Shown here: positions 2,438 to 3,575 of the stretch, one piece after another | Layout of the letters: every line of letters begins with the position of its first letter | How positions within the stretch are numbered: position 1 is the first letter of the stretch | Source of the DNA: a virus | Taxonomy: Duplodnaviria > Heunggongvirae > Uroviricota > Caudoviricetes | Length of the DNA stretch: 6,187 nt | Reading direction: 5' to 3' (one strand) | Virus record (IMG/VR): IMGVR_UViG_2671181111_000004 | Span: 1 to 6,187 of that record | Program-made: the position numbers and the translations under genes | Notes under the pieces: model-generated | Databases searched by the model: none | What the model was told of the DNA's origin: nothing | Seen by the model: only the letters and a program-made list of their open reading frames with translations

Positions 2438-2860
2438 CGCTGTCACCTCAGAATGTCAGTTTGTCACTGGATTTACCGAATTTGTCAGACATGGCTCCCA
2501 GGCCAGCCAGGACATCGACCTGTCGCTGTCGCCCACCTCCGGGAGCGGCTGGCTGTTGCCAGAAGTCTTCGAAGTGACGATCGGGTCCAAAGAACGTCGC
2601 AGCCTGCTTCACGAACTGTGTGCCGGTATTTCCTGTGGCACGTACCCAGGCAGCATAGCGTTTCACGCCATCAAGCATGGCTTCAGGTTTTATTCCCTCC
2701 CTGAGCCGGGCTTTCCAGGCTTTGAAGGCTGCGGATTTTGAGTTACCACCAGCACGTTTTGGATATTCCTGCCAGGCCTGTTCAAATTCCGGTGAATATT
2801 CCTGTCGGGAAGAACGCGCTGGTGCAGACGCGTCAGCGGATGCGCCAATAGTGTTTTTAC

Positions 2861-2908
2861 TCTCTGTAGTATTCTCTGAAGTAATCTCTGTTGTATTCTC
2901 TGTAAGAT
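2861..2908. repeat. four tandem 12-bp direct repeats (TCTCTGnnGTAw) within the initiator linker; candidate origin-associated repeat
   Basis: TCTCTG occurs at 2861, 2873, 2885 and 2897 with exact 12-bp periodicity, seen directly in the sequence. Confidence 0.8.
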
Positions 2909-2915
2909 CGAAATT

Positions 2916-3030
2916 GGTTTTCCCTTCTCCGCGGCGAGGGGTTTCCCGTGTCCGCGGTGAAGGCTTTCCCTCCTCCGCGAAATTGGGTTTTACAGTTTCC
3001 CGAAAACGGGTTTCCCCATTTCGGGAAACT
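2916..3030. repeat. iteron-like direct repeats (TTTCCC motif, about 23-bp units, with inverted repeats); putative phage origin of replication inside the initiator gene
   Basis: TTTCCC at 2919, 2942, 2965, 2996 and 3011; TCCGCG at 2928, 2951 and 2974 (23-bp spacing). Inverted repeat GTTTCCC(3010-3016)/GGGAAAC(3023-3029) and CCCG-AAAA-CGGG at 2999-3010. The layout parallels the lambda origin, whose iterons lie within the O gene. Confidence 0.7.
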
Positions 3031-3355
3031 GATTGTTTTCATTGATAATTTCATTAAGGCGCTCACAATCTATACGGTAGAACATTTTGTGCTCAAGACG
3101 CTTGTTGGTTTCAACCAAAATGCCTCTGGACACAAGATGCTTACGCGCTACAGCCTGTTGTTCAAATGTAAGTCCGGTTTCGTGTTGTATCTCTTCACGC
3201 GTTTTATGTACGCCTTCCGCTGCATGTGCTTTATCCTGCCAGTAAAAAATCTGACCAAAGAAAATAACAGCGTGCGGACTTCCCATGTATTTAACGAGCC
3301 CAGGGTAATAAGCAACCGGATGTCCAAAATCGAGCAGAAGATCAGACGGACGCAT
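2990..3355 (-). CDS. O-like replication initiator, N-terminal winged-helix DNA-binding domain; ORF terminates inside the iteron region
   Basis: ORF of about 121 aa (track 2990..3361 from GTG; ATG 3355 has GGGAGG 5 nt upstream). The pattern (AVIFFGQIFYWQ...TGLTFEQQAVARKHLVSRGIL) looks like a replisome-organiser winged-helix domain. Stop TAA at 2990-2992 lies within the iterons. Confidence 0.65.
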   Translation of the reverse strand: MRPSDLLLDFGHPVAYYPGLVKYMGSPHAVIFFGQIFYWQDKAHAAEGVHKTREEIQHETGLTFEQQAVARKHLVSRGILVETNKRLEHKMFYRIDCERLNEIINENNQFPEMGKPVFGKL

Positions 3356-3575
3356 AGCCACCTCCCAGGCGTTTAAACATTTTTCCGGGCTGAAACGCCA
3401 CCAGCGGATAACTCAGGGTATGAGTACGTCCCTGAACCTGGCAGACAACCTTCTGGCTTTCGGTACTGACCAGGCAAACCCGCAGAACGTAGCCGTTGCT
3501 GGTGGTGAACCACTGCCCCACACGGGGGCAATGGTTGTATCGGTGATACAGGAAATTAACGATGTGGCGGATCAT
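3342..3575 (-). CDS. hypothetical small protein (77 aa), Cys/His-containing, translationally coupled to Rha
   Basis: AGGAGG 7 nt upstream of ATG at 3575; the start overlaps the Rha stop (ATGA). Contains H11, H15, C16, C34 and C45. I recognise no family. Confidence 0.6.
   Translation of the reverse strand: MIRHIVNFLYHRYNHCPRVGQWFTTSNGYVLRVCLVSTESQKVVCQVQGRTHTLSYPLVAFQPGKMFKRLGGGYASV

Follow-up and report, generated by a model that had tools for sequence, protein, structure and literature searches.

A probable frameshifted replication-initiator pseudogene of lambda O-like architecture in an insertion sequence-riddled Shigella flexneri prophage remnant

In phage lambda, the gene for the replication initiator O (299 amino acids, aa) holds the origin within its own coding sequence (CDS): an N-terminal DNA-binding domain is followed by four ori iterons at nucleotides (nt) 349–433 of the gene (about codons 117–145; spacing 20, 24 and 23), an AT-rich tract and a C-terminal domain, and the gene next to it encodes the helicase-delivery protein P, which uses the host DnaB. 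Cassette-wise exchange of the N-terminal domain together with the repeats is a classical lambdoid pattern. Many Shiga toxin-converting (Stx) phages carry an initiator of another family, of which we know of no experimental characterisation. Diverse non-lambda replication modules have been documented in Stx phages (PMC8044961), and the O-like/DnaC/DnaB module considered below is covered neither there nor in PMC8951638, which deal with other modules and mention neither DnaC nor phiP27. Here we analyse the 6187-nt stretch formed by positions 1–6187 of the IMG/VR virus record IMGVR_UViG_2671181111_000004 (the window), whose minus strand carries such a module with, in order of transcription, a 77-aa open reading frame (ORF), the initiator gene, a DnaC-like loader and a DnaB-like helicase. 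With a probability that we put at about 93%, the initiator region is a frameshifted phage pseudogene in a remnant of a S. flexneri prophage riddled with insertion sequences (IS), split into two reading frames by the loss of one T.

Three-frame translation, together with a script, places the 5′ fragment of the initiator pseudogene at 2990–3355 on the minus strand, where 121 codons run from an ATG at 3355, preceded by a GGAGG ribosome-binding site and annotated as the start in relatives, to a TAA at 2992–2990. An earlier note on this DNA, made from the letters alone, had given this stop correctly; the GTG at 3361 with which it began the gene gives way to ATG 3355. The product, whose winged-helix N-terminal domain is described below, is native up to residue 110 and then ends in 11 out-of-frame residues (PEMGKPVFGKL). 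The 3′ part (2448–3038, minus strand, 196 codons), which encodes the iteron-encoded linker and the C-terminal domain, lies in the −1 frame, where the nearest upstream stop is at 3041–3039 and no other is met from 3038 down to the TGA at 2450–2448. The earlier note had described this frame as open over just this span, as we find, and as devoid of any start codon, which holds for 3038–2679 only, since it contains four (ATG 2678, GTG 2666, GTG 2612 and ATG 2492). Its sole callable ORF, and the one annotated by gene callers, is that of 76 aa at 2678–2448. The frame had further been said to reach the loader's ribosome-binding site; the annotated start of the loader is the ATG at 2437, 10 nt past the initiator stop. 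The two frames do overlap, at 2993–3038, by 46 nt rather than the 45 first counted.

A single missing nucleotide separates the two frames. Every intact relative reads CAGTTTTCCCG, with a run of four T (T4), whereas the window reads CAGTTTCCCG, with three (T3), at 3026–3028 on the minus strand (TTT on the gene strand, AAA on the plus strand); the alignment around this deletion site, AATCAGTTTTCCCG in the relatives against AATCAGTTTCCCG in the window, has one gap only. That gap is the sole difference of the gene between the window and Escherichia coli O121: with a T added at 3026–3028, a 909-nt gene for 302 aa is obtained that is 100% identical, in nucleotides and in protein, to the O121 orthologue (WP_001247839.1). 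The indel is hence not a multiple of three, and its repair gives the full protein. This bears out the prediction that a 1-nt indel in a homopolymer within the overlap would restore an initiator of about 300 aa. The promoter-proximal pair of iterons forms a quasi-palindrome, CAGTTT(T)CCCGAAATGGGG-AAA-CCCGTTTTCGGGAAACTG, with the run in its left arm. Through the deletion, the arms that can be paired without a gap grow from 15 nt (87% complementarity) to 18 nt (89%). Because the 18-nt quasi-palindrome has thereby become more perfect, template switching fits, and the deletion may have arisen by quasi-palindrome correction of this kind; slippage in the four-T run may have produced it, and explains it equally well.

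Relatives of the locus were found by megablast against E. coli complete genomes and phage records. In 101 complete genomes of E. coli, an 80-nt probe across the site matched at 116 places, all T4 and none an exact match to the window. The 21 Stx-phage records with a match across the site are likewise all T4. In every record whose annotation was read, the gene is one unsplit CDS of 909–927 nt: in E. coli O121 (909 nt, 302 aa), where it is named 'LvrA C-terminal domain-related protein'; in the Stx2a phage Stx2_EH2201 (909 nt), where it is named 'phage replication protein O'; and in phiP27, as L17 (927 nt). The O121 prophage remnant is 99.8% identical to the window, its initiator being flanked by the same 77-aa ORF and DnaC-like and DnaB-like genes, and the same neighbours flank the 'phage replication protein O' of Stx1a-, Stx2a- and Stx2d-converting phages (LC5678xx), which is 96–97% identical once the T is restored; the O121 and Stx-phage genes differ from that of the window in having TTTT and a continuous 909-nt CDS instead of TTT and two frames. 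Close relatives also carry an intact orthologue at the very same locus, for the S. flexneri genomes CP026765.1, CP026871.1, CP097828.1 and LR213452.1 contain the same remnant with the same gene order (99.7% identity over 5.8 kb), and all four have T4, an intact 302-aa initiator (G273R only) and an intact 463-aa helicase, the intact S. flexneri allele being listed in 3185 index blocks. Since other S. flexneri lineages, the E. coli genomes and the Stx phages all carry T4, the intact state is, on this comparison of sequences, the ancestral one and the split a derived, lineage-specific mutation.

The T3 allele is itself reproducible. The exact 121-aa product occurs in 581 assembly-index blocks and on 515 contigs, under the label 'Uncharacterised protein [Shigella flexneri]', and all ten loci that were fetched have T3: six from NCBI assemblies, among them the complete chromosomes LR861788.1 and LR861785.1, and four from Logan assemblies, which derive from separate Sequence Read Archive (SRA) runs independent of each other. 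One mismatch is all that separates each of the ten from the window, the aligned length being 6123 nt for the six NCBI loci and 4789–5834 nt for the shorter Logan contigs. The two T3 chromosomes belong to the S. flexneri serotype 3a strains AUSMDU00022017 and AUSMDU00021847 (PMC9455713). These data bear on the alternative of a homopolymer sequencing error, raised in the earlier note, or of an error of assembly, in which case the true genome would have a continuous 302-aa gene, a reading that could appeal to the position of the indel in a homopolymer run and to the single base that separates the window from the nearest intact allele. Against it, 581 blocks hold the same allele, among them complete chromosomes and assemblies made independently from SRA data, and other S. 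flexneri lineages show T4 here just as reproducibly. Independent sequencing thus returns the frameshift and not the single continuous frame by which the earlier note would have been refuted. Runs of three to four T are moreover too short for systematic error on common sequencing platforms. As T3 recurs in hundreds of independent assemblies of one S. flexneri lineage, sequencing error is refuted, the chance that we still allow it being negligible. A genuine frameshift in a decaying prophage, which the earlier note had listed first among its alternatives, is instead upheld by a T3 allele that is reproducible in one lineage and by the truncation of the neighbouring helicase by an IS. Together with that truncation, T3 may serve as a lineage marker, the complete genomes with T3 being of serotype 3a.

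Two further readings would make the split functional. One, that two separate genes are native to this position, would call for related phages with two proteins, and was rejected, because all the relatives examined carry one unsplit gene and none conserves the two-frame arrangement. This extends to distant homologues of the N-terminal domain: in Acinetobacter phage phi1_092006 and Klebsiella phage Kp4886-1 the homologue is a single two-domain protein (251 and ~290 aa respectively) encoded just before the loader/helicase gene, and the Kp4886-1 linker, NGESPFRE...TEITTEITTE, resembles the restored frame of the window, NGETRFRE...TENTTEITSE. The related intact phages thus encode one protein, and the finding by which the earlier note would have abandoned a split initiator was not made. 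The other reading, already thought the less likely by that note, is that ribosomes undergo a programmed −1 frameshift within the 46-nt overlap, so that a short DNA-binding form is made alongside the full-length initiator. A −1 shift anywhere in 3038–2993 would indeed restore the full protein, and immediately downstream the iterons have inverted repeats, rich in GC, that could fold in the mRNA; a script, however, found no canonical X XXY YYZ slippery heptamer anywhere in the N-terminal ORF, the overlap included. Nor does the overlap contain any homopolymer longer than 4 nt, too short a run for slippage in transcription. The split is also absent from the 21 site-spanning Stx-phage records, phiP27, the 101 E. 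coli genomes and the other S. flexneri lineages, and its confinement to one lineage argues for a derived mutation and not a conserved recoding site, while the partner helicase is itself destroyed. Recoding is therefore unsupported, and we consider it very improbable.

By profile comparison, the intact initiator is a member of PHROG 270 ('replication initiation protein'; E = 1.3e-64, residues 28–301), and the two halves in the window match consecutive segments of that family, 22–129 and 134–275 of 383 positions, with E = 2.2e-52 for the 3′ part. The 5′ fragment also matches PHROG 9773 ('replication initiation O-like'; E = 4.7e-32), and there is a weak match to PHROG 345 ('O-like'; E = 8e-4). 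Pfam and NCBIfam scans with the intact protein and with both halves gave no match, no Pfam family reaching E ≤ 0.01, and did not reproduce the name 'LvrA C-terminal domain-related' assigned by the Prokaryotic Genome Annotation Pipeline; a sequence search of solved structures with the initiator returned nothing significant. A homology search with the 121-aa fragment retrieved only 21 proteins, most of them partial or truncated, without recovering the full-length clusters, and the architecture was for this reason taken from annotated phage records. Several database homologues of the N-terminal domain (P0050, P0052, P0054 and P0057) run into an out-of-frame ...LLQRLQ..., which is the TENTTEITTE repeat tract read in another frame. 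Other genomes, too, therefore seem to have repeated frameshifts, or errors of assembly, in the repeat-rich middle of this initiator family. Modelled with AlphaFold2 from an alignment of 12 sequences (predicted local distance difference test, pLDDT, 78.8; predicted template modelling score, pTM, 0.71), the 121-aa fragment shows the helix-strand-helix-helix-hairpin topology of a winged helix, with residues 110–121 disordered. Fold searches of the PDB gave generic winged-helix matches (best E = 2.5e-3, template modelling (TM) score ~0.5), plasmid Rep-DNA complexes and the ORC2 winged helix included, which were too weak for assignment to a specific initiator family. The leftover 76-aa ORF (2448–2678, minus strand) matches PHROG 23060 ('unknown function', 76 positions) over its entire length (1–76 of 76; E = 2e-50), a family that appears to have been built from pseudogene fragments of the initiator C-terminal domain.

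The iterons that the earlier note had placed at the frame overlap are real. The nonamer GGGAAANCC occurs in four copies at 2916–3016, spaced 23, 23 and 46 nt (0.2 copies expected in the whole window), and with a degenerate fifth unit at 2985 these define putative origin iterons at 2916–3031, five 23-bp units that each end, as read along the gene strand, in GGGAAA(A)CC; the two units nearest the promoter form the 18-nt quasi-palindrome that holds the deletion site. Tandem Repeats Finder reports the period-23 array and, at 2861–2904, a period-12 AT-rich array. The latter belongs to an AT-rich tract (2858–2904, GC ~35%) with 3.7 copies of a 12-bp repeat, which lies downstream of the iterons, encodes the TENTTEITSENTTE linker and is a putative DNA-unwinding element. 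The iterons correspond to about codons 109–147 of the initiator gene, so that iterons and AT-rich tract both stand within its CDS, between the two domains. By analogy with lambda, the repeats would act as iterons of an origin and the DNA would be unwound at the AT-rich tract.

The likeness to lambda O lies in this arrangement. Size is nearly the same (302 versus 299 aa), a DNA-binding N-terminal domain, iterons, an AT-rich tract and a C-terminal domain follow each other within one CDS with a helicase-delivery gene next to it, and the four to five iterons, with a spacing of ~20–24 bp at about codons 110–150, occupy equivalent positions in the two genes. As in lambdoid phages, too, the N-terminal domain and the iterons are swapped among phages as one cassette, while the C-terminal domain stays with its partner genes. 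The two systems differ in iteron sequence and in partners, which are here a DnaC/IstB-like AAA+ loader and a phage DnaB-like helicase. Sequence homology is another matter: the best BLASTP match to lambda O (E = 0.039 over 26 residues) is not significant, and Pfam PF04492 (Phage_rep_O) gave no match, so that the gene fails as a lambda O family member by sequence. Of the 'size and architecture of lambda O' claimed in the earlier note, the architecture therefore stands, with no sequence homology to lambda O detected. This lambda O-like design, with an origin inside the initiator gene but without lambda O homology and paired with DnaC-like and DnaB-like genes, is of modest interest independently of the frameshift.

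phiP27 illustrates the exchange. Its L17 (NP_543069.1; 3147–4073 of the fetched phiP27 locus) is one fused protein with central direct repeats, is followed by the same loader and helicase genes and has a C-terminal domain near-identical to that of the window from IGASADASAPARS on (~97%), but its N-terminal domain is unrelated and its five central repeats are of the TGACCCTTCAGAATCTG type. The DNA agrees, with a sharp mosaic junction at window position 2850, up to which C-terminal domain, loader and helicase are 94.5% identical and beyond which AT-rich tract, iterons and N-terminal domain are unrelated. That the N-terminal domain and the repeats have been exchanged together supports binding of the one to the other; with the winged-helix model and the synteny with loader and helicase, it lends indirect support to an N-terminal domain that would bind the 23-bp repeats and a C-terminal domain that would bring in the helicase-delivery protein.

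In the intact protein, then, the N-terminal domain would bind the iterons and open the AT-rich tract, and the C-terminal domain would recruit the DnaC-like loader and the phage DnaB. In the lineage of the window, loss of a T from TTTT, at that end of the iteron array which is nearer the promoter, would cause translation to end 11 codons on, at 2992–2990, leaving the linker and the C-terminal domain out of frame and without a usable start. Since a full-length initiator would not be made from such an allele, the replication module of the remnant is probably non-functional, and the IS-truncated helicase points the same way. Some considerations weigh against so plain a verdict. The gene bears no damage beyond the frameshift, being otherwise identical to the intact allele; the mutation must therefore be recent, and sequence decay alone is no proof that selection has been lost. 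Low-level recoding, or a separate role for the 121-aa fragment, may also exist, and the origin role of the repeats is, in this initiator family, deduced from the arrangement of the locus.

A separate role could take the form of co-option: the 121-aa winged-helix domain would be made as a free protein, occupy the iterons and have a dominant-negative effect, silencing the origin of the remnant or excluding incoming phages of the same iteron specificity. Ribosome-binding site, start codon and the complete DNA-binding fold that is predicted are all retained in the fragment, its allele is fixed in a successful lineage, and there is an analogy in lambda O, whose isolated N-terminal domains bind the ori iterons. 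Yet there is no sign of selection, the allele being what neutral decay in a massively pseudogenised genome would be expected to produce, and expression is uncertain, since the prophage promoter/immunity region is missing or IS-disrupted in related remnants. We hold co-option to be very unlikely; if true, the fragment would block origin firing of superinfecting Stx-type phages that share the initiator and iterons, a defence function derived from a pseudogene. What we favour instead, a frameshifted initiator in a decaying prophage, is real but ordinary, and public databases already contain its pieces. In many S. flexneri genomes, proteins of 121 aa and 76 aa are annotated as 'hypothetical' or 'replication' proteins; together they are probably one dead initiator, for which annotation as a pseudogene is due. 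With its 1-nt frameshift, its IS-cut neighbour and its IS-bounded remnant, the locus shares the features of prophage decay and IS-driven pseudogenisation in Shigella and shows nothing distinctive; it adds one more case of lineage-specific prophage decay, of little importance beyond annotation.

The remaining genes of the module bracket the initiator on the minus strand. Upstream, the 77-aa ORF (3342–3575), which overlaps the initiator start by 14 nt and precedes the initiator in all relatives, has no Pfam match. Downstream, the DnaC/IstB-like AAA+ helicase loader (1559–2437, 292 aa), which starts at ATG 2437 and is annotated as 'ATP-binding protein' in relatives, appears intact and matches Pfam IstB_IS21 (E = 1.6e-15) and Bac_DnaA. 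The DnaB-like replicative helicase that follows (288–1562; Pfam DnaB_C, 2–241 of 255, E = 4e-71) is truncated, with 424 aa compared to 463 aa in relatives, to which its homology ends at position 317, and its last 48 codons are IS sequence. This sequence is nested, the segment 1–316 consisting of an IS66-family fragment (67–316) interrupted by an IS3-family end (1–66); the C-terminus of an IS66-family transposase is encoded at 78–284 on the plus strand, and PF03050 (DDE_Tnp_IS66) and HTH_Tnp_1/rve were called in six identical T3 loci. At the other end of the window, positions 6124–6187 are an IS end (IS911-like, TGAAGTGGCACACTGAATTTGGCC...) that interrupts the 3′ end of a gene for a 760-aa Toprim-domain protein; the element names at the window ends are those that we presume from terminal repeats. 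As this second IS end is absent from all ten otherwise near-identical T3 loci, the strain of the window has at least one extra IS insertion.

Decay has proceeded differently among S. flexneri lineages. The S. flexneri remnants related to that of the window have integrase fragments and IS elements right next to NinB/NinE, and no immunity region is present among the gene calls shown for them. An Ash/Rha ORF (3572–4696, minus strand) that is continuous in the T3 lineage, with 374 aa, is split into 204 + 127 aa (or 152 + 150 aa) in the initiator-intact S. flexneri loci (4660–5784). Judged by these reading frames, the gene of this remnant that has been inactivated differs from one S. flexneri lineage to another, being the initiator here and Ash/Rha elsewhere.

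The window also contains genes for a Gp49/HigB-like toxin (4454–4783, plus strand) and an HTH_3 antitoxin (4773–5081, plus strand), which lie between NinE (5299–5123) and the Ash/Rha gene, the toxin gene overlapping a long minus-strand ORF at 3572–4912. NinB and NinE (5123–5996, minus strand) and then the 760-aa primase-like Toprim gene are found upstream of the O-like/DnaC/DnaB module and on the same strand as it (T3 locus 1018–4233). With Nin and Toprim genes before the replication module, the order is the reverse of that in lambda, which suggests that two partial replication or nin regions were joined by recombination or deletion.

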